A stretch of DNA of 64,000 nt from a virus: the IMG/VR virus record IMGVR_UViG_3300014720_000016; one strand, 5' to 3'. The notes below the pieces were generated by a model. It did no database searches, was not told where the DNA came from, and saw only the letters and a list, made by a program, of their open reading frames with translations. The position numbers were made by a program, and so were the translations under genes. Positions 2,547 to 59,528 of the stretch are shown in pieces; within the stretch, counting starts at the first letter, position 1; each line of letters opens with the position of its first letter.

Positions 2547-2807
2547 CTACCTCACAACAAATGCGTAGTTACCAGGAGGATACCCGGCTGGTGGGTGGGA
2601 GCGATGGTTCCATACTCCATCGCACCAATAATTCCATGACTCATGACCTTTGACTATTGAGATGCACAACCAATCGCTACTTATCTCTGGATTAGCAGTT
2701 ATCCTCTCAGGTGGCTCAATCCCAATTTCTCGCGAAACTATTCGTACTACCTCGCGCCAATCGCGCGAGGCGGCAGCAGATTGCAAAGCCCAGTCATGGA
2801 GTTTCAT
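2547..2807 (-). CDS. MKL family A small protein
   Basis: MKLHDWALQSAAASRDW..REIGI..YW. Confidence 0.75.
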   Translation of the reverse strand: MKLHDWALQSAAASRDWREVVRIVSREIGIEPPERITANPEISSDWLCISIVKGHESWNYWCDGVWNHRSHPPAGYPPGNYAFVVR

Positions 2808-2840
2808 TATTTGCCTGCATCATTACAGCAGGCTAGATCG

Positions 2841-3317
2841 TCAACTTCCTAGCTGAGCTTCTAGTTCAGCAGTGCGCTTGCGTAGGCGCTCAAGTTCATC
2901 TAGAGCATCTTTGTGCCGCTTAGCTTCCTCTGCCTGCTTGCGCTCTACGTCAGCCTTCTGCTGGCGCGCTAGCTTGTTTGTAAGCTGGCGCCGGAACAAA
3001 GGGCGACTAGGAAACGGAGGAGTTACGAAAACTTCATTATCATACAGCGTATTACCATTAAACACAAACGCAGTATAGTTGACATCGCCCCGGCATTGTA
3101 CGCGAAAGATAACTTCAGGGAATGCCTTGGATAGTGCAAGGGTCACACTGTGGCCTCCCGACCACTTTGTTTCCGGGCTAAAGCGCCGCCAGCACCATGC
3201 AACGAAATTGCCGTCCTGCCTAAAATCAGTAAGCGCATTAGCTTCTGCCGCAATCTGCGCTTCAAGGGTTGGATTCGAATCGGCAATGTCAATGCAAAAA
3301 GAGTAATAACTTCCCAT
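2841..3317 (-). CDS. hypothetical protein with C-terminal coiled coil
   Basis: KW..LSKAFPEVIF; charged helical tail. Confidence 0.7.
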   Translation of the reverse strand: MGSYYSFCIDIADSNPTLEAQIAAEANALTDFRQDGNFVAWCWRRFSPETKWSGGHSVTLALSKAFPEVIFRVQCRGDVNYTAFVFNGNTLYDNEVFVTPPFPSRPLFRRQLTNKLARQQKADVERKQAEEAKRHKDALDELERLRKRTAELEAQLGS

Positions 3318-3775
3318 TATTTTTCCTCGGCTTTTGCAGCCTTTGTGTTATAACCTGACAGTAGGGCGAAGCCCTCGTGACGGGTCCATGTAACAGATGA
3401 TGGCAGTCCGTATAGCGCCTCGGCTTCGCATCGCCCACAGCTAGCCGCGACTGCGGTACAGTCGCCAGAATGATGCGCGGATAGTTGCAGCTTGTGATGC
3501 GACACGAAGGCGCTAAATCCTCCCGGCCAAAGCGCATCCCAGCAATCGCCGTATTCATGCGTATCACTAAATAGTTTCTTCATAAGGCCGGCTACAATTC
3601 CCTCGTAGCGCACCTGAGCATCTCGCGCACTAGCGGAGCCAAGCCCACCCTTTAGATGCATATCAGCAGTAAGCAGCCGGTCATGAACAATGTATTCCAA
3701 GCACCAGCGATAATATGCAGCTCTATGAGCGTCCTCACTAATGTCCGCTGGCGGTGGGCATATGTCGTGGCTCAT
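3317..3775 (-). CDS. hypothetical protein
   Basis: HSGDCT..SCGRC metal-binding-like motif; abuts next gene. Confidence 0.7.
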   Translation of the reverse strand: MSHDICPPPADISEDAHRAAYYRWCLEYIVHDRLLTADMHLKGGLGSASARDAQVRYEGIVAGLMKKLFSDTHEYGDCWDALWPGGFSAFVSHHKLQLSAHHSGDCTAVAASCGRCEAEALYGLPSSVTWTRHEGFALLSGYNTKAAKAEEK

Positions 3776-3892
3776 GTATCACCTTGGTTTTCGCACGGAT
3801 TCTGCCATGGTAGCCATGGCTATCGCAATAATCCAAAAAGGAGCACTGAGGATAAAAGCAGCAAAGATAATAGCTATTTCCAAGTACTTTTC

Positions 3893-4279
3893 CTAGGTTA
3901 AGTGATTCTTGTATACACAATAGCCGCTTGAGAGCGAGCTTCTTGCAAAACCAGCGGCCTCTGCCGCAGCTATTGCCTCTAGAGCCCCTGCGCTCGCAGG
4001 CATATTAAAATTAAGATAAATGGCACCTAACAAACTAGGTGCATCCCACTCGGTATCGCCACCCATAGCAGAAATACCATCTTCTGAAACACCAAGCCTG
4101 TATATCATGAAGGCGCGCCGCGACACCCACTCTATCAGCAGGCTGTCCTCGCGAGCGAGTTGCAGCAGCATGTTAAATGGCACCCCGCATATTTCCTTAG
4201 GAACCGGCAAACCATAATCTGCAATTGATGCGCGGATATACTCATCGCTACCGGCCCACCAGACATTTGCTAATTTCAT
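3893..4279 (-). CDS. hypothetical protein, MKL start
   Basis: Start re-set to MKLANVWW at 4279; ATGA overlap with upstream stop. Confidence 0.65.
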   Translation of the reverse strand: MKLANVWWAGSDEYIRASIADYGLPVPKEICGVPFNMLLQLAREDSLLIEWVSRRAFMIYRLGVSEDGISAMGGDTEWDAPSLLGAIYLNFNMPASAGALEAIAAAEAAGFARSSLSSGYCVYKNHLT

Positions 4280-4815
4280 TTGCCTGCACAGCCGACGCAA
4301 AGCGATTTGATCCATCCAGAATTGACTTCGGCGTCCGCTCGCCCGCCACACTTTTCACAGACATGGCGGGAGACGCCCTCTGCCATGCGCACAAGACCGT
4401 CGATATATCTGTCGCCTCCTACATAGTAAAAGCACAGTACGCCGAACTTTTCTTTTACCTGGGTACACTGTACCTGATATATAGGCTCATGGGGCGTAAG
4501 AAAAGCAGCCTTGGCAATTACTTCATCTACGCGGTCGGCTACTTTAGGGCTGACCTTGAAAGTCGGCACGCCCCAATTAAAATGCTTTTCTAGCGGCCGT
4601 TTATTACCGGAGATGCCTGCTCGCAAGGCGCGATTATACCGCAGGTCTCGAGCACGGATGCTTCGCGAGCCACTGATATGATGTTGAATATTGGTACAGA
4701 GAACGTCAATGATGTTGTACCAGCCATCGCCGCAGCTGATGCCAATAAAGTCATTACCCCTGCGAAAGATGCGCGGGTGATCACGATATAGTTTTTCTTC
4801 CAGCCCAGGCGACAT
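4276..4815 (-). CDS. conserved phage hypothetical protein
   Basis: CGDGWY..LC, QVKEKFGxLxFY, CEKCG pattern common in phage proteins. Confidence 0.75.
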   Translation of the reverse strand: MSPGLEEKLYRDHPRIFRRGNDFIGISCGDGWYNIIDVLCTNIQHHISGSRSIRARDLRYNRALRAGISGNKRPLEKHFNWGVPTFKVSPKVADRVDEVIAKAAFLTPHEPIYQVQCTQVKEKFGVLCFYYVGGDRYIDGLVRMAEGVSRHVCEKCGGRADAEVNSGWIKSLCVGCAGK

Positions 4816-4816
4816 A

Positions 4817-6786: not shown

Positions 6787-7077
6787 TTACTTATCATTGG
6801 TACGCAATGGCGAGCCATTGAGATAATAGAATTCGTTGATTATATTTCCTGCTTCATCATGAACCGTAACCGCCGGCCCATCTTCCCGGTGCAGTAATCC
6901 ATTCTCTAGATAATCGCGATAGCGCAAGACACCGTTTTTAAACGTGAAAATGATTTGCCTGTATTTTGTGGCTGGTGGGTTTTCGTCAATGTAAATAACC
7001 ACATCGCCGTTAACCTTGCAGCGCCAGCCAGGCGGGCAGTTTACTATATAGTCGGCATGATACATCTTCATCGCCAT
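6787..7077 (-). CDS. MORN-variant/YwqK-like repeat protein
   Basis: YLENGLLHREDGPA..YYLNG. Confidence 0.65.
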   Translation of the reverse strand: MAMKMYHADYIVNCPPGWRCKVNGDVVIYIDENPPATKYRQIIFTFKNGVLRYRDYLENGLLHREDGPAVTVHDEAGNIINEFYYLNGSPLRTNDK

Positions 7078-10222: not shown

Positions 10223-10456
10223 TTACTGTTTGTTGCCAAAAGTATAGTCGTTCTCAGGATCGTCAGGCACATCTATCTGCTCTGAATCGCCTAGCACGCT
10301 GATGGCATAAATGCTGACAGGCTCCCGATTTTTTCGGAACCTGTAGTTGTGCTGCGCCAGCACTATCCCGAGAATAGCCATATCTTGAGGATAGGGCAGT
10401 CGCAGGACGCACGTTCCCCATCGGTCACGGAATTCATAGGCCTTGATAAGCTTCAT
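10223..10456 (-). CDS. MKL family B small protein
   Basis: MKLIKAYEFRD..IYAISVLGD..I. Confidence 0.7.
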   Translation of the reverse strand: MKLIKAYEFRDRWGTCVLRLPYPQDMAILGIVLAQHNYRFRKNREPVSIYAISVLGDSEQIDVPDDPENDYTFGNKQ

Positions 10457-10790: not shown

Positions 10791-11054
10791 CTACCATGAA
10801 GTAATTGTTGCAGTATTATTTGGACTTACAGTTGAGCTAATATATGAATTGCAGTCAGGCAGCGCCATCATGTAGCACATACCATTGACAAATATCCTAA
10901 TGGCAGCTGGCGCCAGCCGACCGTGCAGTACGTTGTCGGCTACTACCAGGGACGCTGGCGGTGCTAGACCGAACTCACGCGCAGCTATGGCCGCCGCTGC
11001 ATACCAGTGGCGACAAGCGATTGCTTCTGCCATTTCCCACTTCAACAGCTTCAT
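10791..11054 (-). CDS. MKL family A small protein
   Basis: MKLLKWEMAEAIACRHW..REFGL. Confidence 0.75.
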   Translation of the reverse strand: MKLLKWEMAEAIACRHWYAAAAIAAREFGLAPPASLVVADNVLHGRLAPAAIRIFVNGMCYMMALPDCNSYISSTVSPNNTATITSW

Positions 11055-12287: not shown

Positions 12288-12593
12288 CTAGGTAAAAAGC
12301 CTTTGGACTACATAAGGATCCGTCACGCCCTCATCATCCCCTGAAGCCTCTAGCATACGGTATGCCAGCTCTATTGAGCTTTTTGTAATCTTGGCAAGAT
12401 TTGGAGAGAAGTAGGTGCCGGTGACGACTTGTCCACCTATACTTATCTGCTCACCGAACTGGTATATACAAAAGCCAGGCTTAACAACCCAAGCATACAT
12501 CGTGCTATCATCATAGATTCCGGTGAAAGCATCCGTGTATTCGCCAACTACTTCCTGTAGATGTTCGCGAATTTCCCACTCTCTAATCTTCAT
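12288..12593 (-). CDS. MKL family C protein
   Basis: MKIREWEIREHL..GF..YFSPNLAKI; paralogue of 14512-14844. Confidence 0.7.
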   Translation of the reverse strand: MKIREWEIREHLQEVVGEYTDAFTGIYDDSTMYAWVVKPGFCIYQFGEQISIGGQVVTGTYFSPNLAKITKSSIELAYRMLEASGDDEGVTDPYVVQRLFT

Positions 12594-12856
12594 TGCTTCA
12601 TCGCAAACACTACCCGTAGTGCCGGGTGAATGGTGTCTATAAAAGTATTGGAATAAAAACCTTCGCCGTCGCTCCAACTGTAGTACTCTTTGGATCGGTA
12701 CATAACGATCTCATTGCCAGCATAAGGATCGTCTACTACGACTTCAGCAGATGCTGTGTCAAAGTCAATCCCGAACTGCGCCTTAAACAACCTGTATATC
12801 TCGTCCACGTCGCGGCGCTGGAATGCATCTAGCATCTGGTAGTGATCCAGCTTCAT
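12590..12856 (-). CDS. MKL family A small protein
   Basis: MKLDHYQMLDAFQRRD..AQFGI..YSW..GF. Confidence 0.8.
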   Translation of the reverse strand: MKLDHYQMLDAFQRRDVDEIYRLFKAQFGIDFDTASAEVVVDDPYAGNEIVMYRSKEYYSWSDGEGFYSNTFIDTIHPALRVVFAMKQ

Positions 12857-12857
12857 G

Positions 12858-13115
12858 CTATACCCTTAGAGTAATGGCGCAAGATGTGCGACGATTAAAC
12901 TTGGCAAAAGATTTGCCGAAGCCGCTTTCGGCGGTCCATTTATAGTATCCTGGCCCATCCCAAAGGTGGACCGCATCTCCATGAAGATGAGTAGGATGAA
13001 CTTCTACTGACAAGTCTACAATGCTCAGGCCGAAGTGCTCTTGAAAGATCTGCACGGCTTTGTCGGTGTCGGCCTGCTGGAAAGCCTCTAGCATTAGATA
13101 GTGATTTAGCTTCAC
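12858..13115 (-). CDS. MKL family A small protein
   Basis: MKLNHYLMLEAFQQAD..EHFGL..YKW..GF (GTG start). Confidence 0.8.
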   Translation of the reverse strand: MKLNHYLMLEAFQQADTDKAVQIFQEHFGLSIVDLSVEVHPTHLHGDAVHLWDGPGYYKWTAESGFGKSFAKFNRRTSCAITLRV

Positions 13116-13132: not shown

Positions 13133-13155
13133 GGATAGGCGCGGCCCGGCTTTAG
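13133..13155 (-). promoter_or_regulatory. recurrent oriented motif (variant)
   Basis: GGATA-GGCGCGGC-CCGGCTTTAG; its TAA is the stop codon of the upstream gene. Confidence 0.55.
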
Positions 13156-13436
13156 ACCGGAGCCCGCGCTCTAATTGCCATGGCCCACCACACAGTGATG
13201 CTAGGTTTTGTGTAAGGCGTTATTATTTCAAAGCAAGAAAAGCCATTACGCGAATCCCACACATATGACTTATACCCTGCGTCAACCCTAAGCTGGTCAA
13301 TATAAGGATATGAATCCCTTACTTCTGCCTCGACATTAGGGAGCTTTATGTTAAAGTGTTGCTCGACGCCAGCCTTAATAGCAGGCAGATCCCGCTCAGC
13401 AAAGGCAAGGCGCATCGCATAGTTGTCTAGCTTCAT
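13152..13436 (-). CDS. MKL family A small protein
   Basis: MKLDNYAMRLAFAERD..QHFNI..YVW..GF. Confidence 0.8.
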   Translation of the reverse strand: MKLDNYAMRLAFAERDLPAIKAGVEQHFNIKLPNVEAEVRDSYPYIDQLRVDAGYKSYVWDSRNGFSCFEIITPYTKPSITVWWAMAIRARAPV

Positions 13437-13449: not shown

Positions 13450-13968
13450 TCAATCCCAGAACCGATCAAGGGTTTCAATGATGCCAATGAAGTCTGAGAT
13501 AGGAGAGCCGGAGCGAAAGCAGCCGACCTGGTCGGGATGATTACCCCATCGGCAATGGCCGCGGTCAATGTCGTCCTTCATCTGTACCAGTTGCTTGACA
13601 GCCGCTTCCGTAATATAGTTGTGATTAATGTATTGCTGATAGCTATATGTGCCATCGTCTTCGTGCGCAATATTGTCGCAACCGACAACACTTACCTGCT
13701 TGCAAAGACCGAGGTCATAGGGGCTGCTCTTGCGCCACTTGATAGTGGAGAACGTGCCGCCCGCCGGTTCGAGATCGTAGGCAGTGCTCTCTGGATCGGC
13801 ATAGTGAGCTTCGTAAGCAGGGATATCAGGAACCGCTACTGCCTTGTAGTACTTGCCAAGTGTGCCGAAGAAAGGGATATCATCCTGCGAGCAGGAGAAG
13901 TTTACATAAATCTTAAAGCAGTCGCCAGCAGCAACCGGCGGGCTGTAGTCAATCTTGTTAATTTTCAT
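13450..13968 (-). CDS. hypothetical protein
   Basis: 172-aa ORF, MKI start, within run. Confidence 0.65.
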   Translation of the reverse strand: MKINKIDYSPPVAAGDCFKIYVNFSCSQDDIPFFGTLGKYYKAVAVPDIPAYEAHYADPESTAYDLEPAGGTFSTIKWRKSSPYDLGLCKQVSVVGCDNIAHEDDGTYSYQQYINHNYITEAAVKQLVQMKDDIDRGHCRWGNHPDQVGCFRSGSPISDFIGIIETLDRFWD

Positions 13969-14245
13969 GCTGATAATCCCGCTTTCTTATAACGGTTAGT
14001 TGCGGCACTACGTCGCCTAGCCCGGCTGAATAACGATAGGAATAGAAGCCAGTGTCCTGGCTCCATGTATAGCGCTTGTCGCAAATACGCAGAGAAACAT
14101 AGCTGTCATCCACTACGCTGTCTAGGAGTGCGACCTCTGCTTTTGCCTGAAGGGAGCAGCCGTGATGCCTAGCGATGGCAGCAGCCAGACCATCCCAGTC
14201 GCCGCGCTCGATCATAAATATAAGCTCGTAATCTATGAGCTTCAA
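13958..14245 (-). CDS. MKL family A small protein (TTG start)
   Basis: LKLIDYELIFMIERGDW..RHHG..YTW..GF; AGGA RBS. Confidence 0.75.
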   Translation of the reverse strand: MKLIDYELIFMIERGDWDGLAAAIARHHGCSLQAKAEVALLDSVVDDSYVSLRICDKRYTWSQDTGFYSYRYSAGLGDVVPQLTVIRKRDYQHEN

Positions 14246-14246: not shown

Positions 14247-14525
14247 TCAAATTCCTTTGCAGTAGACAATAGCCATCGGAGTAGGGTAGTTTACTGGGTA
14301 CCGCTCGGAGATCACCTGCCCTCGCCTCCAGTAGTAGATATTGTATTGCCAGCGGATCTGCACCTCTTCCATATCCCAGGCAGGCATTACTGACGTAGAT
14401 ATGCCATGAATGCTAATGGCTTCCTCAATACCCTCGAGTGGGAATAAGGATGCTAGCAGCCGAACAGCTGCTCCCCAGTCCTTTTCCCCAAGGGCAAACT
14501 TAATCGCAATGCTAGCTAGCTTCAT
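14247..14525 (-). CDS. MKL family A small protein
   Basis: MKLASIAIKFALGEKDWGAA..YYW. Confidence 0.75.
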   Translation of the reverse strand: MKLASIAIKFALGEKDWGAAVRLLASLFPLEGIEEAISIHGISTSVMPAWDMEEVQIRWQYNIYYWRRGQVISERYPVNYPTPMAIVYCKGI

Positions 14526-45275: not shown

Positions 45276-45282
45276 GCGTACC

Positions 45283-46979: not shown

Positions 46980-46994
46980 GGCCGGGGCGGGCTG

Positions 46995-47258
46995 CTAGCG
47001 AATCCAGATGTCTGCTGCTGACATACGACTTTCATTACCATGACGGCGATGCCAGGCGGTGAAGCCTTTCGTCTCGCACCATGCATATGCACGCTCGGGA
47101 AGATAAATCTCTACCTGAAACAGATTCATGCCGCGCATTACGTCCATCCTGTATTCGGGCGGCATGTCTACCCCGTAATGGCGGGCGAGGGCGGCAACAG
47201 CAGCGGACCAATCTTTTCGAGAGACGGCTTCTCTGATCTCGTAATCGGCCAGCTTCAC
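46995..47258 (-). CDS. MKL family A small protein (GTG start)
   Basis: VKLADYEIREAVSRKDW..RHYGV..YAW..GF. Confidence 0.8.
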   Translation of the reverse strand: MKLADYEIREAVSRKDWSAAVAALARHYGVDMPPEYRMDVMRGMNLFQVEIYLPERAYAWCETKGFTAWHRRHGNESRMSAADIWIR

Positions 47259-47294
47259 GGGCACTCCGGCGGGGGCTAGGTTTTTGCTAGATGT

Positions 47295-47705
47295 TCAAAC
47301 AGCAGTCAGCTTATACTTCTTGCCATCAATCTCAACAACTTTTCCATCACAAGTATCTGACTTCAACTTTTCAAGCCCGTTATTTTTTAGGGCAAAGTCG
47401 AAGGCTAGGTAGAGGGAGAGGGAGAAGGAGAAGGCGTCGACAAAGTCGAAGGCGAGATCGCACGTGAGGGCGAGATCATTGTTTGCAGCAAAGTCAAAAA
47501 GAAATATGTTACCTTGAAAAAGTTTATCACCTCGGCGAGAAAACTTATGTTCCTGTTTGTTTTTGATGCGTGGATAACCATACTCTTTACGAAGTCGGTT
47601 TGCTTCAGCCCACCAAAAATCATTCAGCACATACTCAACACCTTCTTCCATATTGTAAAAGGTTTCACGAATAGCAGCATCAGTTTGTTCAATAGTGAGC
47701 GACAT
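47295..47705 (-). CDS. hypothetical protein with low-complexity [LF]-x insert
   Basis: AGGAG RBS; paralogue of 39402; ends KVVEIDGKKYKL. Confidence 0.75.
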   Translation of the reverse strand: MSLTIEQTDAAIRETFYNMEEGVEYVLNDFWWAEANRLRKEYGYPRIKNKQEHKFSRRGDKLFQGNIFLFDFAANNDLALTCDLAFDFVDAFSFSLSLYLAFDFALKNNGLEKLKSDTCDGKVVEIDGKKYKLTAV

Positions 47706-47718
47706 TTTATCTCCTGTA

Positions 47719-47973
47719 TCAAAACGGCTTGAAAAAGACTTCAGCCACATCAGCTTTCGGGATTAGCACAAAAGAATCATCTGATGGATCCAATGGGTAA
47801 GGCAAATCGTTACGACTGCCAGCATCAACCGACCACGCATCGCCATGATCGAATTCAGGTACGATATCAAAAGGTTTGTGGTCAGGGGTGCCGGCATAGA
47901 ACTCATGCGTAATTCCGTTTGCAAGACGCAGCCACCAGTAGCCTGTTACTTTTTGGGCGTTAATTCTTGTCAT
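47719..47973 (-). CDS. hypothetical protein
   Basis: ORF in AT-rich three-gene block. Confidence 0.65.
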   Translation of the reverse strand: MTRINAQKVTGYWWLRLANGITHEFYAGTPDHKPFDIVPEFDHGDAWSVDAGSRNDLPYPLDPSDDSFVLIPKADVAEVFFKPF

Positions 47974-48006
47974 ATTTCCCTTGCCACCAAGATAGCGCTC
48001 AATCCC

Positions 48007-48252
48007 TTATCCTACGCTGACGAGTTCAAGATGCTGATCCCAGCCGTGATAGGAAAAGTGCTCTAACTCTCCTGGAGAAAGATAATAGCTGCCGCACTCG
48101 ATCAATTGAATTTCAATAGAACCGTGATTCTCTGCTGAGAGATCTCCCTCCCAGAGGTCAATGCTCACAACCTTGCCAACAAATCTGTCTCCTTTATTAT
48201 GAAAGAAGGAGCCCTTTTTGATGGCAACGAAATCACCAACCTTGATAGTCAC
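48007..48252 (-). CDS. small SH3/KOW-like protein
   Basis: IKVGDFV..GKVVSI; GAGGAG RBS. Confidence 0.6.
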   Translation of the reverse strand: MTIKVGDFVAIKKGSFFHNKGDRFVGKVVSIDLWEGDLSAENHGSIEIQLIECGSYYLSPGELEHFSYHGWDQHLELVSVG

Positions 48253-48261
48253 AAAGACTCC

Positions 48262-48630
48262 TCAATCCGCGTGCCAAAAGATGCGGAGAATTTTGCTGTC
48301 AGCGGGGTCTGTGATCACCAGCGGATCTAGCCCGTCGTTCAGCACATCATTGATGAAATGCCGGCAGTAGCAATCTTCACTAAGCGGCTGCGGATCAAGT
48401 GTGTCATCGAACTCACAGCCCCACGTCGCTTCGCCCGCAGCTAGATCAGCAAGCGACAGCCCGTTGTCGGCCATCATCTTCTTCAGCCGGGATTTAGATG
48501 CGCGCTTCCAGAGTTGAGGATTGGACGCCGCAGCAAACGCAGCGGAATCAGCCGGGTCAAAGCGGGCGTGAACGTGTACGGCAGCATAGCGAATAATCGT
48601 AGGAATAATAGCGGCGGTGCTTAGCTTCAT
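48262..48630 (-). CDS. hypothetical protein, MKL start
   Basis: ORF in run. Confidence 0.65.
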   Translation of the reverse strand: MKLSTAAIIPTIIRYAAVHVHARFDPADSAAFAAASNPQLWKRASKSRLKKMMADNGLSLADLAAGEATWGCEFDDTLDPQPLSEDCYCRHFINDVLNDGLDPLVITDPADSKILRIFWHAD

Positions 48631-48834
48631 TCACTCCACCACTTCGCACTCGGATACTGCAATCCAATCACAGCCGCCGCTCCAACTATCTGGGCCGTCT
48701 TGCCGCTTGTCGGCCCAATGCCATCCTGCAAACGTCTCGGCGGCAATACGCCGGGCAGTCGCTTGAGAGGCACAGATTGCAATGATATGTCCGCCTTCGT
48801 GGGCCTCGCCCTCTTCAACCGTCCAAACTTTCAT
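48631..48834 (-). CDS. small 'EGG' family protein
   Basis: MKVWTVEEGEAHEGGHII. Confidence 0.7.
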   Translation of the reverse strand: MKVWTVEEGEAHEGGHIIAICASQATARRIAAETFAGWHWADKRQDGPDSWSGGCDWIAVSECEVVE

Positions 48835-49085
48835 GGCAACACCTGGTGCGCGTCAATGCGGATAAAATCTACGCAATTTGCCCAGCGGTTCTCGGCCGTT
48901 TGACGCCAGCGGAAATCTGGATCGAGGTCAGGACTGGCTTCGCGGTTGAGTCCCTCTTCATCGGCAAGAAAAGCGCTGACCGCGCCCTTTGCGCCTTCGA
49001 GCGTAGTATGCACGCTGCGCACATGCCCGCCTTCGTAGAGCTCGCCAACGGTAACAATGAAAATATTATTGCGGGTCATGTTCAC
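48831..49085 (-). CDS. small 'EGG' family protein
   Basis: IFIVTVGELYEGG..SVH.T; AGGAG RBS. Confidence 0.7.
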   Translation of the reverse strand: MNMTRNNIFIVTVGELYEGGHVRSVHTTLEGAKGAVSAFLADEEGLNREASPDLDPDFRWRQTAENRWANCVDFIRIDAHQVLP

Positions 49086-49088
49086 TCC

Positions 49089-49304
49089 TTATGCAGCCTG
49101 AATGTCACGGCGAATGCTATTCAGAGTGCTATAGGCTTCCGCGTAGTACTGGAAAGCGGCTTCATAGCTGCTCCAGCCCTTCTCGGCAGCGCGGTCACAG
49201 AAGTCGTCAAACCCGCAACATTCCACGAAATAATCCCAGCCATCGCTCTCATAGTTGTCAAGAGCATACTGGTAAATGCGATCATAAACGGCGCGGTTAT
49301 CCAT
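49089..49304 (-). CDS. hypothetical protein
   Basis: YALDNYE..GWD..VEC; GGAG RBS. Confidence 0.7.
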   Translation of the reverse strand: MDNRAVYDRIYQYALDNYESDGWDYFVECCGFDDFCDRAAEKGWSSYEAAFQYYAEAYSTLNSIRRDIQAA

Positions 49305-49329
49305 GTCGGCTCCAGCTGTTTGTGAGTGT

Positions 49330-49608
49330 TCAATCAGGGAAGGCAGAGGCCATACGGGCAATAATCGAATCATCTGCACGAGCGAGTGCGATCTTTTCTC
49401 CGGCAAGAAACCGTTTAATCATTGACAGGGTAACGCTGCTGGCTTCCATGCCCAGCATCGCCTCAGCCGCCGCTCGTAGTGCGGAATACTGGACAAACGT
49501 AATGCCAAATTCCTGCTTATTATAGCCATCATTGGCAGAGATGCCACTGAATACTGATGCAGTATATGCCCGACGGAATCCAGCGAACTGCTTAGGGGTA
49601 ATCTTCAT
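49330..49608 (-). CDS. hypothetical protein
   Basis: MKITPKQ start after GGAG. Confidence 0.65.
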   Translation of the reverse strand: MKITPKQFAGFRRAYTASVFSGISANDGYNKQEFGITFVQYSALRAAAEAMLGMEASSVTLSMIKRFLAGEKIALARADDSIIARMASAFPD

Positions 49609-49698
49609 TACTGCTCCAGCGCAATAGTAACCGGCGGCAGGACTCGCACCTGCGTCTCCCGTGAACAATACGGGGCTTTGCTACTAAGCTACACCGAT

Positions 49699-49729
49699 AA
49701 AAAAGCGCCCCTTTTTATAGGGAAGGGGC
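49699..49729 (-). terminator. probable intrinsic terminator
   Basis: GCCCCTT/AAGGGGC stem followed by U6 on minus strand. Confidence 0.55.
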
Positions 49730-49740
49730 AAACCCCCTGA

Positions 49741-50157
49741 TCACTTCAGGCGCTCAACAGCAGCGGCCAAGCGATCAGCAAGGCGGTTCACTTCGGCACG
49801 GGCGGCATCGCTGCCGACCTGGGAGTCACCGCCCACCTTTACCGAGAGGCGGTCGGCATTTTCCCGGAGGAAAGCCACACCCTTATCGGTAACGATGAGG
49901 TCGAGAACAATCCCCACGAAGTGAGGAGCGTAGAGGGTAACGGGGAAGGTGGCGTTCACTCCGTAGACGCTGATAGCACCCTTCTCCGAAACCTTGGCAG
50001 AGTAGCCACGGGGAGCGCCCTTGTTCTTCTCTGCTGCATCAGCGCGGGCCTTCTCAGCAGCAAGGGCTGCCTGAGTCTCCTGCAACCGTCGCAGGAGGTC
50101 TGCGAGATCGGGGCTGGTGTTGTTGGCAACGGCGATACCATCGGTCTTGACGAGCAT
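49741..50157 (-). CDS. KVSEKG..FPVTLY family protein (paralogue of 62740-63165)
   Basis: Coiled coil then GYSAKVSEKGAISVYG..FPVTLYA; high GC3; own motif and terminator. Confidence 0.8.
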   Translation of the reverse strand: MLVKTDGIAVANNTSPDLADLLRRLQETQAALAAEKARADAAEKNKGAPRGYSAKVSEKGAISVYGVNATFPVTLYAPHFVGIVLDLIVTDKGVAFLRENADRLSVKVGGDSQVGSDAARAEVNRLADRLAAAVERLK

Positions 50158-50268
50158 GTGCTCTTTCCTTTTTATTTGACATTCCCCTAGCCCCTAACCA
50201 TTAGGGGTTTTGGTTCCTGTCCCTCCGCCACTTGCGTTTGCCGGGGGCGGCGACCGGCTCGACCTTCA

Positions 50269-50314: not shown

Positions 50315-50617
50315 TCATGTGCTGCGCTGATCTGAACTTGTCCAAACCGTAGCGCTTACTACCTCTACCTTGCTGTAGTCCCGGTCTGCGGGCCAGCCGG
50401 GCGCAGGAGCATAAAAGGCATAGAAGCTACCCGCACACCATTCATAAGGATCTGGACCAACCCAGGCTCTAACGGCAGGGCTGTCATCTTCCACTTCCTT
50501 TATGACGATCTGCACGCCCGGTAAGTTTATGTCAAAATGTTGCAGCAACAGGCGCACTGCCGCTTCATACCGCCCTTCGGATATAGCGGTTTGCAGCAGG
50601 TAGGATTCCAGTTTCAT
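50315..50617 (-). CDS. MKL family A small protein
   Basis: MKLESYLLQTAISEGRY..QHFDI..YEW. Confidence 0.8.
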   Translation of the reverse strand: MKLESYLLQTAISEGRYEAAVRLLLQHFDINLPGVQIVIKEVEDDSPAVRAWVGPDPYEWCAGSFYAFYAPAPGWPADRDYSKVEVVSATVWTSSDQRST

Positions 50618-50620: not shown

Positions 50621-50893
50621 TTATCTTTCGGGCACAGAAGTAATAGCGGCAACCGATCCCGGATAGTGTGCAGCCCTGCGTCGTACTGTGCCGTCACGAG
50701 AATAGGAGATTCTCTTTGATCCCATATAGAATACTACGGCTTTCCAGGTAAAGCTGTTTACGTCCCATACATCCAGCTCTATAGAGGTGTGGGGCGGGAG
50801 CGTGATGCCTAGTTCCGCGGCTACCAGGTGGACCGCCTCTTCGTAATGCTTGCCGGTTATAAGTTCATCAAGGCGGTAGGTCAGTATCTTCAT
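50621..50893 (-). CDS. MKL family A small protein
   Basis: MKILTYRLDELITGKHY..ELGI. Confidence 0.7.
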   Translation of the reverse strand: MKILTYRLDELITGKHYEEAVHLVAAELGITLPPHTSIELDVWDVNSFTWKAVVFYMGSKRISYSRDGTVRRRAAHYPGSVAAITSVPER

Positions 50894-51083
50894 GGGCGTC
50901 CATCTGTTGCTGTAGCCAGGGCCTAATGTAGGTGCAGATCGTACAGCTGATTGGGTGTTCGTTATCCGCATCAGCCCAGTTCGTTAGTCTCCCTACGCCA
51001 TAGTGCTCGATTAGGATTGGGAGCATACGGGAAAAATCCCCGCTGGCGATTGCATCCTGTACGGACCATTCATCTATTTTCAT
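50868..51083 (-). CDS. MKL family A small protein (short)
   Basis: MKIDEWSVQDAIASGDF..EHYGV. Confidence 0.7.
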   Translation of the reverse strand: MKIDEWSVQDAIASGDFSRMLPILIEHYGVGRLTNWADADNEHPISCTICTYIRPWLQQQMDAHEDTDLPP

Positions 51084-51345
51084 TCGGCGTCCATATTACC
51101 ATTGCGGTCAGAGGCCCGTGTCCGCCGGTTCCAATGGCGGAATAGAAGCCGCCATCTTCCCATTCAAACCCGCGGTGGTGCAGCCATATGCGGATAGCGT
51201 AGTTTGTATGCGGAACGCGGGTAACTTTTATTTCTTTTAAAGGCGGGTCTATAGCGTAGCCGTAGGCTTGTGCCAGGATTGTTGCGGCATCCATATGCCG
51301 GCCTTCCCGCAGGGCTTCCCGTATTTGATATGAGGCTAGCTTCAT
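51070..51345 (-). CDS. MKL family A small protein
   Basis: MKLASYQIREALREGRH..AYGY..FEW..GF. Confidence 0.8.
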   Translation of the reverse strand: MKLASYQIREALREGRHMDAATILAQAYGYAIDPPLKEIKVTRVPHTNYAIRIWLHHRGFEWEDGGFYSAIGTGGHGPLTAMVIWTPNENR

Positions 51346-51629
51346 CGTGGATGCCATATCTTCATTGCCGCGAAGGGGGGATTTGCTCCAACATGGCCAT
51401 GCCGATAGCCATACCTAACCGTCCACTCATACCAGTCTCCTTTGACACAGAACAGCAACGAGGAGAGCCCTGTCCGCCTTTCTATCGGCAGATCTGGAGC
51501 CGGCCCTAGCCCGAAGTGCTGGAACAGGATCGCCATTGCTTCCCGGTTATCGGCTGCGGCATCATCAGCTGTACCCCTGCGGGCACGAGCATCTAGGGCC
51601 GAAAGAATCGCAAAAGTATCTAGCTTCAT
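51342..51629 (-). CDS. MKL family A small protein
   Basis: MKLDTFAILSALDA..QHFGL..YEW..GY. Confidence 0.8.
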   Translation of the reverse strand: MKLDTFAILSALDARARRGTADDAAADNREAMAILFQHFGLGPAPDLPIERRTGLSSLLFCVKGDWYEWTVRYGYRHGHVGANPPFAAMKIWHPR

Positions 51630-51648: not shown

Positions 51649-51921
51649 TTATACTCGTTTGCTCCAGATCACAGCCCGGGGATCAGTCCGGTAATTGTAG
51701 AATGTGGCATGTCGGAAGCGGCCTCGCTCACTCCATTCATACCAGTATTCTTCTATATAAACTAGTATGCGCGAAGAATCCGACCCTGTGATAGAATTTA
51801 CTTTTATTTCAGCGCTGGGCGGCAGTTCGCTCTGTGCAAAGTTTTGCAATAGAGCATTGCAAGCGCCACGGTAGTCACCAGCAGCCAGCAGGTCAGCAAT
51901 CAGGAAATGCTGTAGTTTCAT
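51649..51921 (-). CDS. MKL family A small protein
   Basis: MKLQHFLIADLLAAGDY..QNF..YEW. Confidence 0.8.
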   Translation of the reverse strand: MKLQHFLIADLLAAGDYRGACNALLQNFAQSELPPSAEIKVNSITGSDSSRILVYIEEYWYEWSERGRFRHATFYNYRTDPRAVIWSKRV

Positions 51922-52175
51922 AGCGGAAACCATATATGTACTAGTGGGGGGGCGAGGCGCCGTGGCAGTCCGCTGCTGCGAAAGCCGGCTGCGGCTGTCC
52001 AGGAATACCACTTCGCATCATAGTAAATCATTTCCGCGATAGGAGCTACGCGCCGGACTATTTGCAAATCCCCCGGCACTTCGCCAAGACCGAAGTGGTG
52101 AAATAGGACTTGTACGGCCCCTACATTGTTGCCGGACTCTAGGGCGTCGATGATTGCAAATTTATCCAGTTTCAT
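51918..52175 (-). CDS. MKL family A small protein
   Basis: MKLDKFAIIDALESGN..HHFGL..YSW..GF. Confidence 0.8.
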   Translation of the reverse strand: MKLDKFAIIDALESGNNVGAVQVLFHHFGLGEVPGDLQIVRRVAPIAEMIYYDAKWYSWTAAAGFRSSGLPRRLAPPLVHIWFPL

Positions 52176-52282
52176 GGCGGCAGAATCCGATTCCTGCCTA
52201 CCAGCCGTTCGGCAATCCGCTCACGGAGCGCAAGCGTAAGGCAAACAAAACCCAAAATCAGTGCAAGCACAGGTGCAGTCAT
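52172..52282 (-). CDS. 36-aa single-pass membrane microprotein
   Basis: MTAPVLALILGFVCLTLALRERI..*; ATGA overlaps at both ends. Confidence 0.55.
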   Translation of the reverse strand: MTAPVLALILGFVCLTLALRERIAERLVGRNRILPP

Positions 52283-52587
52283 TGTGGCCCCTTCCATACA
52301 ACAGCGCGAACTGGTACGGGATTTTCAGGTGGTGTTACTGAGCCGCTATAGCGCGACTTCACGGCTATGCTCCAAAAACTATCGGTTTCAAACCAGGCAT
52401 AGCATCTATTCCAATGCGGACCTGCAATAATCTCGATGCCCCATTCTACGCCCCAGGCTTCGGGGCCTTGTGCCTCGATGCGATCTATGTGCAGGTCTAG
52501 CTCGAAGTGCGCCTGTAGTAGTGCGGCTGCGGCAGCATAGTCGCCGGAGATCAGGGTATCCCGCATCAGCCAATCGTCCAGCTTCAT
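52279..52587 (-). CDS. MKL family A small protein
   Basis: MKLDDWLMRDTLISGDY..AHFEL..YAW. Confidence 0.8.
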   Translation of the reverse strand: MKLDDWLMRDTLISGDYAAAAALLQAHFELDLHIDRIEAQGPEAWGVEWGIEIIAGPHWNRCYAWFETDSFWSIAVKSRYSGSVTPPENPVPVRAVVWKGPQ

Positions 52588-52874
52588 GTAGCGCCTGCTG
52601 GGTGCCAGAGATTTATATAAATTTGCAGTACATCGTAGTCATACAGGGGATAGCTGTGTGATCCGGTAGTAAAGCCGTGGATGCTGTGCCATGCATACCA
52701 GTCATCGTTGACCCAGACGCACAGCTCGGTTTCATTGCCCCGGCCTGTGTAGTTGCGTATCTTTGGCAGGTGCTCTACCTGTGGCAGCCGGAAATAGCGC
52801 AGCAGGATACGTACGGCTCCATAGAGATCGCCCGTAGCAATAGCCTCTCGTATTTCGAATGATTCTAGTTTCAT
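52584..52874 (-). CDS. MKL family A small protein
   Basis: MKLESFEIREAIATGDL..RYFRL..YAW..GF. Confidence 0.8.
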   Translation of the reverse strand: MKLESFEIREAIATGDLYGAVRILLRYFRLPQVEHLPKIRNYTGRGNETELCVWVNDDWYAWHSIHGFTTGSHSYPLYDYDVLQIYINLWHPAGAT

Positions 52875-52922: not shown

Positions 52923-53198
52923 CTACCAGACAGTGCCACGCTGTGCCAGGGTAAAGGGGTAGCGACAGATATCTTCCACAAATCCGTCATCCCTGTGAGA
53001 AATAATATAGATATCTGAGGCATGGTAGATGCGGACAGAGATCCATGCTCGCGGGAAGTTCTCACGATTTCGTAGGGTTCTTTCGTCTGCAATCTTATGC
53101 GGCAGCGGTATGCGGAAGTGATCGGCAACTAGCTGGATTGCGCGGGTGGGATTGCCGGCTTCTAGTGCTTCAGATATACCCCAGCTAAGTAGCTTCAT
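52923..53198 (-). CDS. MKL family A small protein
   Basis: MKLLSWGISEALEAGN..DHFRI..GF. Confidence 0.8.
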   Translation of the reverse strand: MKLLSWGISEALEAGNPTRAIQLVADHFRIPLPHKIADERTLRNRENFPRAWISVRIYHASDIYIISHRDDGFVEDICRYPFTLAQRGTVW

Positions 53199-53491
53199 GC
53201 CGTTTGCCTCCAGGCTCCTGGAAAGAATATTGTGTTTTGTTTCGGTGGAAAAGCCAATGGGTCCCGATGGAAAGCGCCTGCGGGTATTGCCCATGCATTC
53301 CGTAAGGCATATGTGTACGTGTAGCCAGGGACATCTAGGCGAATATACGTCATCCACCTAATTGCCTCAACCTCCCACTTCTCATCTAGGCGGTTGTGTA
53401 GTTCGGGAAAAGCTTTAGCAAATATTTCCACTACAGCACGCAGGTCGCCGCGCTCTACCGCATCCTGGATTGCCCATGACGCCAGTTTCAT
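53195..53491 (-). CDS. MKL family A small protein
   Basis: MKLASWAIQDAVERGD..KAFP. Confidence 0.75.
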   Translation of the reverse strand: MKLASWAIQDAVERGDLRAVVEIFAKAFPELHNRLDEKWEVEAIRWMTYIRLDVPGYTYTYALRNAWAIPAGAFHRDPLAFPPKQNTIFFPGAWRQTA

Positions 53492-53706
53492 GATTTGTAA
53501 TCCGCTAGCGGGATCTCAGTCTTGCCCCCTAGTGCGTCAATGGCAAATAGCCGCAGCGGAAGCGTTACATGGGGAGAATCGCGATACATTTGCGCGTATC
53601 GAAGGGCTATACGACGAGCGTGCTCGATGCCGCGTACATCTGGTGTTGTTTTGAACATGTACCTGCTGTCAGAGTCCAGCACAAAATAACTCCTGATTAG
53701 CTTCAT
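53488..53706 (-). CDS. MKL family B small protein
   Basis: MKLIRSYFVLD..LPLRLFAIDALG..EI. Confidence 0.75.
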   Translation of the reverse strand: MKLIRSYFVLDSDSRYMFKTTPDVRGIEHARRIALRYAQMYRDSPHVTLPLRLFAIDALGGKTEIPLADYKS

Positions 53707-53718: not shown

Positions 53719-53928
53719 CTAATCAAGCTCCACTTCACGCCGCTCACCTAGGGCATCTACCTGAATGAAACGCAGTGGCAGCATACGCTGGCGCTCATAG
53801 TAAGAGATTCCCCGTAAAAAACTTGCGCTTATTCCTGCGCGCGTACCCCTATCAAACAGCGAGGGCGGGATACTGCCTAGCAGGCGGTTGCGGTTATCGT
53901 AGACTAGGTAATGCTGGATTAGCTTCAT
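53719..53928 (-). CDS. MKL family B small protein
   Basis: MKLIQHYLVYD..LPLRFIQVDALGE..EV. Confidence 0.75.
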   Translation of the reverse strand: MKLIQHYLVYDNRNRLLGSIPPSLFDRGTRAGISASFLRGISYYERQRMLPLRFIQVDALGERREVELD

Positions 53929-53941: not shown

Positions 53942-54223
53942 CTATTTCTCCATCGTCGGTTTCCATTCTGCTGGCAACCATAGGACAACAACATCTTCAT
54001 CCCCGTAAAAATCCGAGAAATATCCAGGTGGGCTGCCATCAAACCACTCGGCGACCGCGCCATCAACTACGATCTCAATACCTAGTATTCGGTTAGCGCG
54101 CTTTATACGTTCCGCACAGGCGTCTGGTACTGGGATGCCGAAGGCGGCACAGAGCAGCCGCTCGGCGGCAGCATAGTCCCCGGCTTCTAGGGCGGTTTTG
54201 ATCTGGTATGATTCGAGTTTCAC
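53942..54223 (-). CDS. MKL family A small protein
   Basis: VKLESYQIKTALEAGDY..AAFGI..EW. Confidence 0.8.
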   Translation of the reverse strand: MKLESYQIKTALEAGDYAAAERLLCAAFGIPVPDACAERIKRANRILGIEIVVDGAVAEWFDGSPPGYFSDFYGDEDVVVLWLPAEWKPTMEK

Positions 54224-54226: not shown

Positions 54227-54574
54227 TCATCCACTGAAAGGAGATTTCTTTGATTTCTTTTTTGCGGGCGCTACATGCGATAGCACGTATTTCAGATCTG
54301 AGCGTAGCAGTTCTACTTCTGCCCGCAGGTCCTGTAGTTGTCTAAGAATATCTGCTTCAGCAGGACTAGGGGCTTGCGGGGGCGGCAGGACTAGGGATAC
54401 CCCGCATTTAGGGCAAGCCTCGCCCGTAGTAAGGGTACTGCACGCGCCACAGCACCGGATCAGCGTGGTAGCAGGGAGTGTGGTCGTATTAGGCAGGGGA
54501 TAGGTGCCAGTGCCATCGGTAATGCGGAAGCAGTACTAGCAAAACACGCCCGGCAGATGGTTGCAGAAGCTCAT
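54227..54574 (-). pseudogene. zinc-finger/coiled-coil gene with an in-frame TAG at codon 13
   Basis: MSFCNHLPGVFC*YCFR..CCGAC..CPKCG..; ATGA-coupled start; fills the gap exactly. Confidence 0.6.
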
Positions 54575-54759
54575 TCTTTTTCCCCTGGAGTTATATTCAG
54601 CGCATCCCCTAGTGCGTCTATCTCGTATAGTGCCAGGGGTGTTTGTGTAATAGCCGCAACCCATGCAAAGTCTACAATCGCATCATGCTGCGGCGGTATC
54701 TTGCCCACTACTTCACCGGTGCCTTTTATCCGTATTTCGTAATGGCGGATTAGCTTCAT
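54571..54759 (-). CDS. MKL family B small protein
   Basis: MKLIRHYEIR..PLALYEIDALGD. Confidence 0.75.
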   Translation of the reverse strand: MKLIRHYEIRIKGTGEVVGKIPPQHDAIVDFAWVAAITQTPLALYEIDALGDALNITPGEKE

Positions 54760-54949
54760 GACCCATCTCCAGAATATGCAAATCACCTAGGGCATCTACG
54801 GCGGCTATATGTAGCGGGGTGAGGTGCTTGTAGATTATGCTATAGAGATCCCGCATATGGCACATATGCTGCTCGGATGCATCATCGCCAAACCGGAGCA
54901 CAAGACCCCGGTTTGCATCCACCAGTAAGTATTCTGTAAATAGTTTCAT
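54713..54949 (-). CDS. MKL family B small protein
   Basis: MKLFTEYLLVD..PLHIAAVDALGD. Confidence 0.75.
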   Translation of the reverse strand: MKLFTEYLLVDANRGLVLRFGDDASEQHMCHMRDLYSIIYKHLTPLHIAAVDALGDLHILEMGHEANPPLRNTDKRHR

Positions 54950-58673: not shown

Positions 58674-58754
58674 GGCGGGGTCGACCTGGCAGTCTAGGGT
58701 GTCAATGCTTGCAGGCCGGGCCAGCTTCGTGTCTAGTTCTGGGAAAACCTGCGC

Positions 58755-58976
58755 TCAGTAATCCCAACCACGCTCTGCCCGGTTAGCGCAGGTATCACAC
58801 TGATAGCCACGCGCCCGGTCAGCAGGCGTTAGGCGGTTAGGAGCTTTGCAGTTAGGACAAGGAAGATTTCGGGGATTATCCGCTGTAGCAGCTCGGAGCG
58901 CAGAGCCACCGCCTGGATCTGCAAAGTCGCAGAGATAATCCTCATCCTCATAACCGAAGTCATCATCATCGTACAT
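58755..58976 (-). CDS. small zinc-finger protein
   Basis: FADPGG.SALRA..PCPNC..YQCDTCA. Confidence 0.75.
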   Translation of the reverse strand: MYDDDDFGYEDEDYLCDFADPGGGSALRAATADNPRNLPCPNCKAPNRLTPADRARGYQCDTCANRAERGWDY

Positions 58977-59017
58977 ACTGCTTCCGTTGCTAGAGGTTGG
59001 TCGCTAGTAAGAATCTT

Positions 59018-59203
59018 TTATTTTCCTGCAAGCCAGTTCAGGGCTGCACCCAGTCTGCGGGTTGACAGGACGAATTCCCCATCAGATGTGCAGCAAAGAA
59101 AGGCATCATCTCCCGGGTCATGAATCACAACCCAATCACCACGAACCCAACGGGTGTGGGATGGCTGTATGCCGTTGTCTATAATGCGAACAGAAATGTC
59201 CAT
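59018..59203 (-). CDS. hypothetical protein
   Basis: GAGGAG RBS; 31 nt after motif. Confidence 0.65.
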   Translation of the reverse strand: MDISVRIIDNGIQPSHTRWVRGDWVVIHDPGDDAFLCCTSDGEFVLSTRRLGAALNWLAGK

Positions 59204-59233
59204 GGCCTGCTCTCCTCGGTCGTTCGGCCTTCA

Positions 59234-59256
59234 GGATCAGGGGACACCGGCTTTAG
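59234..59256 (-). promoter_or_regulatory. recurrent oriented motif
   Basis: GGATC-AGGGGACA-CCGGCTTTAG. Confidence 0.7.
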
Positions 59257-59270
59257 GCCGGACGGGACTG

Positions 59271-59528
59271 CTATCGTGACCGGATGTTGATTTGATTCGA
59301 AAGATACCTAGGAACGCAACTAGATCGGAATCCCTCGAACTCAAGCCAAGAATAACGGGCCGAAGGCATATCTACTGTTACTTCTAATAGGTAATGCGGG
59401 TGGCAGTAGATGTGCCTTGTGTATTCTGGCGGTATGATTATGCCGAAATGTTCTGCAAGAATGGCAATAGCTGCGGGCCAATCTTTATTGGAAATAGCCT
59501 CTCGCACCGCATAGCTAGCTAACTTCAT
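59271..59528 (-). CDS. MKL family A small protein
   Basis: MKLASYAVREAISNKDWPAA..EHFGI..YSW..GF. Confidence 0.8.
   Translation of the reverse strand: MKLASYAVREAISNKDWPAAIAILAEHFGIIIPPEYTRHIYCHPHYLLEVTVDMPSARYSWLEFEGFRSSCVPRYLSNQINIRSR

Follow-up and report, generated by a model that had tools for sequence, protein, structure and literature searches.

Why would a phage keep dozens of diverged copies of one very small gene? The question is raised by a 64,000-nt stretch of viral DNA (IMG/VR record IMGVR_UViG_3300014720_000016; the whole stretch is called the window here), whose source is an uncultured T4-related jumbo phage of lakes. Between positions 2547 and 59528, a first-pass annotation had picked out about 46 open reading frames (ORFs) of 70-115 aa as one diversified family, referred to below as family A. 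We find that its members are real genes under purifying selection, individually retained since before related phages diverged, and that they are predicted to share one compact fold. Tentatively, we read the family as a set of small binders that has diversified to serve host takeover or counter-defence.

Forty-six small paralogues on one strand

A hidden Markov model (HMM) was seeded with 11 matches to a regular expression and iterated over the 864 six-frame, stop-to-stop segments of the window until convergence. It settled on exactly 46 members (HMM E 2e-10 to 2e-25) of 71-113 aa (median 94), in close agreement with the earlier estimate; all 46 lie on the minus strand, and the six-frame profile search found none in the other five frames. 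Each profile match begins at a start codon (37 ATG, 8 GTG and 1 TTG), residue 2 is Lys in every member, and residue 3 is Leu in 43 and Ile in 3. The window has 155 non-nested ORFs of 60 aa or more on this strand, and the family makes up ~30% of them. Neighbouring members are often nearly contiguous, with 23 tandem junctions of <60 nt, 9 of which are 4-nt overlaps. The tandem runs noted in the first-pass annotation were recovered with exactly the same counts: seven members between 12590 and 15961, nine at 35339-37951 and twelve between 50315 and 54223.

The closest paralogue of a member within the window has a median identity of 32% and a maximum of 48% over >60 aa, bearing out the earlier impression that no two copies are near-identical. 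The motif proposed for the family stands as a consensus and falls as a rule: the full N-terminal expression is literally satisfied by none of the 46 members, and the late signature is found as written in 18 and in a loosened form in 24. One member, 50868-51083, is truncated, keeping only the N-terminal ~31 profile positions (the helices) and overlapping a neighbouring member. The members are listed below with HMM E values; dN/dS (the ratio of nonsynonymous to synonymous substitution rates) refers to orthologues in L022, and G001 is a complete-genome relative, both introduced in the next section.

2547-2807, minus: member, 86 aa, E 2.2e-15
10791-11054, minus: member, 87 aa, E 4.3e-19
12590-12856, minus: member, 88 aa, E 1.3e-23; second AlphaFold model (pLDDT 92.9)
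12858-13115, minus: member, 85 aa, GTG start, E 1.9e-20
13152-13436, minus: member, 94 aa, E 2e-24
13958-14245, minus: member, 95 aa, TTG start, E 2e-22
14247-14525, minus: member, 92 aa, E 2.3e-20
14851-15114, minus: member, 87 aa, E 4.3e-20
15620-15961, minus: member, 113 aa, E 8.3e-18
21215-21523, minus: member, 102 aa, E 3.2e-18
21766-22059, minus: member, 97 aa, E 2.5e-21
22522-22818, minus: member, 98 aa, GTG start, E 5.7e-18
28335-28595, minus: member, 86 aa, E 1.3e-16
30958-31245, minus: member, 95 aa, E 9.8e-19
31567-31872, minus: member, 101 aa, E 4e-23
31859-32143, minus: member, 94 aa, GTG start, E 4.7e-19
33974-34249, minus: member, 91 aa, E 2.4e-16; L022 orthologue dN/dS 0.11
35339-35644, minus: member, 101 aa (run of nine), E 2.3e-25; dN/dS 0.23
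35657-35929, minus: member, 90 aa, E 6.1e-25; dN/dS 0.05
35926-36198, minus: member, 90 aa, GTG start, E 2e-20; dN/dS 0.14
36195-36485, minus: member, 96 aa, E 7.4e-19; dN/dS 0.33
36482-36748, minus: member, 88 aa, E 2.3e-19; dN/dS 0.17
36757-37062, minus: member, 101 aa, GTG start, E 2.8e-19; dN/dS 0.28
37052-37348, minus: member, 98 aa, E 2.5e-19; dN/dS 0.16
37335-37634, minus: member, 99 aa, E 3e-18; dN/dS 0.47
37631-37951, minus: member, 106 aa, E 4.9e-20; dN/dS 0.11
38157-38456, minus: member, 99 aa, E 1.5e-24; first AlphaFold model (pLDDT 92.1)
39077-39394, minus: member, 105 aa, most divergent, E 1.8e-10 (profile positions 1-54); dN/dS 0.12
41444-41761, minus: member, 105 aa, E 4.6e-14; dN/dS 0.14
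41758-42021, minus: member, 87 aa, E 1.8e-13; dN/dS 0.37
42032-42316, minus: member, 94 aa, GTG start, E 1.6e-17; dN/dS 0.13
44237-44536, minus: member, 99 aa, directly downstream of Tad3 homologue, E 5.4e-17; G001 orthologue 81% identical
46995-47258, minus: member, 87 aa, GTG start, E 3.4e-24
50315-50617, minus: member, 100 aa (run of twelve), E 5.2e-22
50621-50893, minus: member, 90 aa, E 1.8e-11
50868-51083, minus: truncated member, 71 aa, E 9.1e-12 (profile positions 1-31 only)
51070-51345, minus: member, 91 aa, E 2.4e-22
51342-51629, minus: member, 95 aa, E 1.3e-18
51649-51921, minus: member, 90 aa, E 3.2e-22; missing in a lake variant
51918-52175, minus: member, 85 aa, E 8.7e-20; missing in a lake variant
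52279-52587, minus: member, 102 aa, E 1.7e-17
52584-52874, minus: member, 96 aa, E 3.4e-24
52923-53198, minus: member, 91 aa, E 8.9e-18
53195-53491, minus: member, 98 aa, E 2.4e-15
53942-54223, minus: member, 93 aa, GTG start, E 1.4e-20
59271-59528, minus: member, 85 aa, E 1.7e-23

The copies are old and individually maintained

Two relatives of the source phage were compared with the window. The sequencing runs that contain the window stretch are lake and freshwater metagenomes (among 24 runs none was listed as an RNA data set containing it, the single run labelled RNA-Seq being probably DNA), and a 12-kb megablast against 50,697 phage records found no close relative among cultured phages. 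The relative G001 is an IMG/VR genome of 371,675 bp (CheckV 100%) with 65-87% nucleotide identity to the window in patches; its rIIA, family B polymerase and baseplate-wedge proteins are T4-related matches. It holds 46 family members, on a single strand and all at 3.9-77 kb, and a profile search of 4,734 segments found none in its remaining ~295 kb. Related shorter contigs carry 7-17 members apiece. The idea that the family abuts a genome end was dropped: the 'direct terminal repeat' of G001 is an assembly overlap of only 127 bp, so its map start is arbitrary.

At short range, 16 syntenic orthologue pairs between the window and the closer relative L022 (dS 0.2-0.65) are 77-98% identical, which is at odds with the hypervariable C-terminus that had been proposed. 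Their whole-gene dN/dS ranges from 0.05 to 0.47 (median about 0.17), values equal to those of neighbouring genes and indicative of purifying selection. At longer range, only 21 of 46 members have reciprocal best matches in G001, and 8 exceed 60% identity; where dS is unsaturated, dN/dS is 0.2-0.4 for the family and 0.02-0.1 for enzymes. The MoxR and vWA proteins are 93-98% identical between the two phages (vWA 98%, MoxR 93%), far above the surrounding sequence. In a tree of the window and G001 members, the nearest neighbour of 33 of 45 window members lies in G001 and recent duplications are few. Because most window members pair with a copy in another phage genome, the expansion predates the split between the window and G001, as the first-pass annotation had supposed in calling it old, retained and diversified. 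Individual copies are thus under constraint, although the family as a whole diverges several times faster than core genes do. The G001 orthologue of member 12858-13115 (G001 30615-30873; L004 10615-10873) is split by a frameshift and is probably a pseudogene or an assembly error.

Copy content also differs between close strains. A joint in a lake contig (51624>52171) deletes exactly two members, its ends falling inside the first codons of two paralogues; lake variants have 565 nt inserted where member 38157-38456 has its 5' end (joint 38442/38456) and replace the stretch between 37355 and 37531 of member 37335-37634; and L022 has one additional family member relative to the window. Strains gain and lose units through recombination at shared 5' ends.

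A compact predicted fold under a variable surface

The structure of two members was predicted with AlphaFold2 from alignments of 45 and 88 sequences. The model of member 38157-38456 reached a predicted local distance difference test (pLDDT) score of 92.1 and that of member 12590-12856 a score of 92.9, each with a predicted template-modelling (TM) score, pTM, of 0.83. Both show one compact alpha2-beta domain, with pLDDT >90 throughout and the same order of elements: a helix at residues 2-14, a helix at 17-28 and then five to six strands. In the predicted fold, the two helices at the N-terminus pack against an antiparallel sheet of five to six strands. A homodimer co-fold of member 38157-38456 (two copies, alignment A1) gave a score of 0.09 (mark, 0.42).

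Conserved columns (M1, K2, L3, I8, A11, D16, W17, A20, L24, H27, F28 and G29 in the first part, and V39, I49, I51, Y58, W60, G65 and F66 in the later part) are mostly hydrophobic or glycine, whereas most other columns carry <1 bit and positions 9-10 ~1 bit. No conserved Cys or His set, and no evident active site, was found among the alignment columns, and isoelectric points (pI) range from 4.3 to 9.5, with nine basic members (pI >8) and 14 acidic ones. This pattern is that of a hydrophobic fold core beneath an almost freely variable surface.

The first-pass annotation had envisaged a constant pair of docking helices carrying a hypervariable head. Between paralogues the N-terminus is indeed better conserved (34% identity over the first 30 residues against 16% over the remainder), but the two-module design is not supported: orthologues change at similar rates in the two parts (10.6% and 12.9%, p=0.24), the conserved positions are core-like, and because the helices belong to the domain in both models, the proteins are better described as one scaffold with a better-conserved N-terminal core.

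Searches for a structural relative returned nothing above noise. Foldseek gave best E values of 0.06 and 0.21 for the two models against the PDB and 0.07 against BFVD, a shape search of the ESM Atlas did not exceed a TM of 0.43, and VIA-align, run on 48,161 chains, reached best Z scores of 2.9 and 3.1, where the program's own guidance is that models without a clear match typically reach Z 7-8. PepSY-like proteins, sliding-clamp domains, PsiB and Ugi-2 recurred as weak structural rows, all within noise, and Myb/SANT clusters from a language-model atlas, at 0.85, were likewise at noise level. On the strength of the two models, the predicted fold is probably new.

Sequence searches for known relatives

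The annotation had not recognised the family, and neither did the collections searched. Ten members gave nothing below E 0.02 against Pfam and PHROGs, no Pfam family matched in more than 3 of all 88 members, the family profile reached at best E 0.045 against PDB sequences, and tblastn of member 46995-47258 against the 50,697 phage records found no match. A profile search of 1.84 billion representative proteins returned 263 matches at E up to 1e-3; among the matches listed, essentially all are stand-alone proteins of 75-132 aa. A search of 5.8 billion proteins yielded only unnamed metagenomic proteins without Pfam domains. Longer or fused forms of the family were not found, which is weak evidence. 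Scans of IMG/VR with two members gave no match for one and only G001 for the other. At the level of sequence comparison, the family is new.

Among candidates, Ig_7/CHU_C (PF19081) was rejected: a 3,212-aa protein reaches E 1.5e-21 through the adding up of 30 near-identical repeats, and each repeat, matching at a Y-x-W-S-x-x-x-G motif, scores -2 to 4 bits. Three giant CHU_C/Ig_7 proteins surfaced in the representative-protein search through the same artefact of repeat summation, with matches of 1-4 bits per repeat.

A shared Met-Lys-Leu start beyond the family

Family A is not alone in its first residues. In the window, 77 minus-strand ORFs of at least 50 aa start with M-K-[L/I], of which 46 belong to family A and 31 to other families. 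In G001 about 40-47% of ORFs in the first 40 kb share this start, as against about 0-10% in the 120-320 kb bins. Lys2 is encoded by both Lys codons and Leu3 by five Leu codons, and selection therefore acts largely on the residues; a nucleotide-level cause was set aside, CTA at codon 3 being only mildly enriched (42% vs 26% elsewhere, p=0.02). When family A is compared by hhalign with other small families, the alignment to four of them covers no more than its first 13-26 residues (probability 27-68%); with a fifth small family, 33 residues align at 11.5%.

The 31 other ORFs (1024-56659, minus) encode, among others, an M16 peptidase, a phosphoesterase and members of other small families. One such family, the second in the window, has proteins of 62-78 aa with an MKL(I/F)..Y start and a D-A-L-G end motif:

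10223-10456, minus: D-A-L-G family
42620-42832, minus: D-A-L-G family
53488-53706, minus: D-A-L-G family
53719-53928, minus: D-A-L-G family
54571-54759, minus: D-A-L-G family
54713-54949, minus: D-A-L-G family

Further small families have two to five members, for example 30470/38419/46495, 27298/32677 and 12288/14512. A 14-member family in G001 (L003; 30-2843 and other sites up to 75.8 kb) has an MKL-D-x-W-E start followed by L-H-R-x-D-G-P-A repeats, which we take to resemble MORN or YwqK-type repeats; the window has only two of its members, 1024-1395 and 6787-7077.

Gene neighbourhood and an oriented intergenic motif

The genes interspersed with the family in this accessory arm include the following:

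16483-20991, minus: M16 peptidase (16483-17598), DUF2201 metallopeptidase-vWA protein (18578-19744) and MoxR AAA+ ATPase (19825-20991), together
37948-38160, minus: DUF6900 protein, 70 aa, E 4e-20
44594-45064, minus: homologue of the type I Thoeris inhibitor Tad3, 156 aa (PF25185, E 3e-32), directly upstream of member 44237-44536
45525-45600, minus: tRNA-Ala(TGC), embedded in the small-gene arm
49629-49698, minus: tRNA-Thr(TGT), embedded in the small-gene arm

Tad3 acts directly on ThsB, the sensor of Thoeris, and inhibits it (review PMC13728456). Besides the two tRNAs, the window encodes an HNH endonuclease, an RNA ligase, a SpoU methylase, an R2K ATP-grasp protein, a sigma-region-4-like protein and a VanY peptidase, together with a weak, sub-threshold match to the HAD domain of RNA-repair proteins. 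A MoxR plus peptidase-vWA pair has been described in T4-related 'group 2.2' jumbo phages, where it was assigned to virion assembly (Iyer et al. 2021, PMC7824862). The DUF6900 gene sits between members 37631-37951 and 38157-38456, a position that it also holds in four related contigs. Part of the depth over the tRNA-Ala gene comes from contigs of other organisms. Just one sizeable block, 23237-27283, lies on the plus strand. It holds four genes, including one for a DUF2827 protein (E 4.5e-82) for which a scan aimed at host identification found no close bacterial relative; its three other proteins (two of 257 aa and one of 423 aa) have no PHROG match, and the 423-aa protein has no Pfam match.

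The arm is punctuated by a motif, TAAA-N13-GATCC on the coding strand (GGATC-N13-TTTA on the plus strand), of which the window has 27 strictly oriented copies against 0.48 expected. They span 6187-63922, mostly between gene blocks, with 12 of the 27 in 62271-63922. In G001, 69 copies lie on one strand and are confined to 340-371 kb plus 0-130 kb. The motif is a candidate class-specific promoter or processing signal. The 46 members are distributed over ten of the blocks it delimits, spanning 57 kb among other genes, and one such block, from 46957 to 40884, holds the Tad3 homologue and four family members. A single lake contig (33-nt side) joins 35287 to 50264, skipping 14,976 bp, with its second end at a copy of the oriented motif; this joint may be a motif-mediated rearrangement.

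What the family might do

Small size, the lack of a catalytic signature, a variable surface and the long retention of each copy argue for a repertoire of binders, as do fast long-range divergence, strain-level turnover and a counter-defence neighbourhood. It is thus quite possible, and the explanation that we tentatively prefer, that the family serves host takeover or counter-defence. The paralogues would be small binders without enzymatic activity, each with its own host protein to block or redirect, defence proteins included, and the repertoire would have been built by duplication plus surface divergence on one scaffold. The annotation's proposal of an inhibitor repertoire fits this context to the extent that the Tad3 homologue shares its block with four members. 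Several points weigh against it. Whole-gene dN/dS lacks any sign of positive selection, so the classic signature of an arms race is not seen, and the structure searches matched the fold to no known inhibitor, sponge or immunity protein. Further, the argument from context leans on a few annotated neighbours among many unknown genes, and 46 maintained specificities is a large number for one host.

Alternatively, if the array were largely a by-product of recombination-driven duplication in a hyperplastic region, selection on the copies would be weak, redundant or of a dosage type, and they would have no distinct targets. The deletion, insertion and replacement of units at conserved 5' ends between strains, the truncated member 50868-51083 and the frameshifted member in G001 are what such a process would leave, and in comparable arrays tandem duplication has been taken as the means by which the genome expanded (Hua et al. 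2017, PMC5646251). Redundant copies, however, should be lost or homogenised, whereas here very old paralogues are kept as distinct syntenic orthologues at a dN/dS of about 0.17, with 46 copies in both sampled genomes; we regard this explanation as unlikely. Rather unlikely, too, is that the family serves the phage's own processes, with MKL and the first helix acting as a class tag for processing, timed degradation or delivery. The shared start in 31 ORFs of other families, its confinement to the accessory arm of G001, the codon usage at residues 2 and 3, the alignment of N-terminal residues alone across small families, and the presence of the M16 peptidase, DUF2201 peptidase-vWA and MoxR genes in the same arm all point in this direction. 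T4 internal proteins, which share a 10-residue capsid-targeting leader, are similar in having a common Met-Lys N-terminus on diverse small proteins from a plastic locus of a T4-type phage. By contrast, residues 2-14 of family A form an integral, confidently modelled helix and no detachable leader; a T4-type leader ending in a protease site was not found, N-terminal conservation being limited to M1, K2, L3, I8 and A11, with position 10 and its neighbours variable and without a conserved cleavage site; and there would be no precedent for packaging as many as forty-six species. MKI is also how the M16 peptidase and a phosphoesterase begin, Lys at position 2 is a common, translation-favoured start, and the published assignment of the MoxR-vWA pair to virion assembly also counts against a tag. 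A long shot that joins the two ideas is that ~80 accessory-arm proteins of several unrelated families, with family A as the largest block, share a Met-Lys-Leu start and a first amphipathic helix as a class-specific tag, read by phage machinery or a delivery route, while the alpha2-beta domain is a new binder scaffold; the M16 peptidase, the metallopeptidase-vWA protein or MoxR would then be the reader.

We also considered whether the family is a phage polyimmunity set, possibly a much-reduced offshoot of SUKH, in which each protein would neutralise its own toxin domain, from an abortive-infection system of the host or from a competitor. Polyimmunity loci, according to Zhang, Iyer and Aravind, are reportedly made up typically of diverged paralogues in tandem, and SUKH proteins (PF09346, PF14568) are likewise small alpha+beta proteins; many members of family A have an (L/I)P-x-(D/E)-Y motif after helix 2 and a Y-x-W strand, like the (L/I)P-x-D-Y and Y-x-W motifs of SUKH-1, and one G001 member (29631-29942) reaches 22.1 bits against SMI1_KNR4 (PF09346, positions 4-57) and 15.6 against SUKH_6 (PF14568). 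The former falls below the Pfam cut-off of 25.4 bits, and the other 87 of 88 members have no match at E up to 1. An hhalign comparison of the 88-sequence alignment (A2) with a shallow profile of 7 Bacillales SUKH-1 domains (A3) gave a probability of 0.15% over 5 columns, and on these two results SUKH membership was rejected at the profile level. No SUKH chain appears among the structural matches listed for either model, though such a listing does not exclude the fold; the domain is ~40 residues shorter than SUKH and lacks its C-terminal helix, and no toxin gene was recognised beside family A among the neighbours scanned, all of which leaves this origin decidedly doubtful. A role as small nucleic-acid-binding regulators of phage or host gene expression, finally, seems very improbable. 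The nine basic members would suit it, and Iyer et al. (2021, PMC7824862) proposed a regulator-type role for the zinc ribbons that phage G carries in about 35 copies, from which family A differs in its predicted alpha2-beta fold and in showing no sequence relation (tblastn of one member). Against it, 14 members are acidic and the pI spans a wide range, the alignment shows no conserved basic patch, helix-turn-helix or zinc ligands, and the structure searches detected no DNA-binding fold.

Comparison with other expanded viral gene families

As a kind of array, this one is already known, because two studies describe jumbo phages with arrays of >30 small genes (Hua et al. 2017, PMC5646251; Iyer et al. 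2021, PMC7824862): phages G and 121Q carry >30 tandem small genes (Hua et al. 2017, PMC5646251). Like them, family A comprises dozens of diverged small-protein copies, co-oriented and tightly packed in the accessory region of one giant genome, with 46 homologues in a phage genome of >200 kb (the 371,675-bp relative). The arrays of phages G and 121Q are single, whereas family A is spread over ten blocks in 57 kb and mixed with other genes, and the tblastn search with one member showed no sequence relation to them. It also recalls the hyperplastic regions of T4-type phages, in which modules are shuffled by way of PeSL promoter/stem-loop cassettes (Arbiol et al. 2010, PMC2839356; Comeau et al. 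2014, PMC4122927). Both are plastic, rich in orphan genes and subject to gain and loss of units between close strains at short conserved sequences, and the window has a repeated, strictly oriented intergenic motif of its own, TAAA-N13-GATCC. The joints here, however, lie inside the paralogues' own conserved first codons, and the T4 regions hold mostly unrelated orphan genes rather than one 46-member family.

Outside the phages, the MGF360/505 genes of African swine fever virus (ASFV) and the host-range families of poxviruses are terminal multigene families with roles in host range and immune evasion. They resemble family A in that one scaffold has been duplicated in a variable arm, old paralogues are retained and copy content varies between strains; they belong to another virus realm, have other folds and encode much larger proteins.

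Giant phages repeatedly spend tens of kilobases on expanded families of tiny proteins, none with a known function. Family A is a clean example, with 46 old, selected copies, a confidently predicted and unmatched fold, gain and loss variants in lakes, and, in the same block, a homologue of Tad3, a verified class of anti-defence gene; a new fold would probably emerge if the structure of one member were solved. If the shared N-terminus is a tag, it would point to an unknown form of post-translational handling in phage infection; a tag combined with a binder scaffold would mean that a giant phage handles a whole cohort of host-directed proteins in a previously unknown way. If the members are binders of host or defence proteins, they would provide small inhibitors as a ready-made collection, together with a view of the defences that an uncultured freshwater host deploys.

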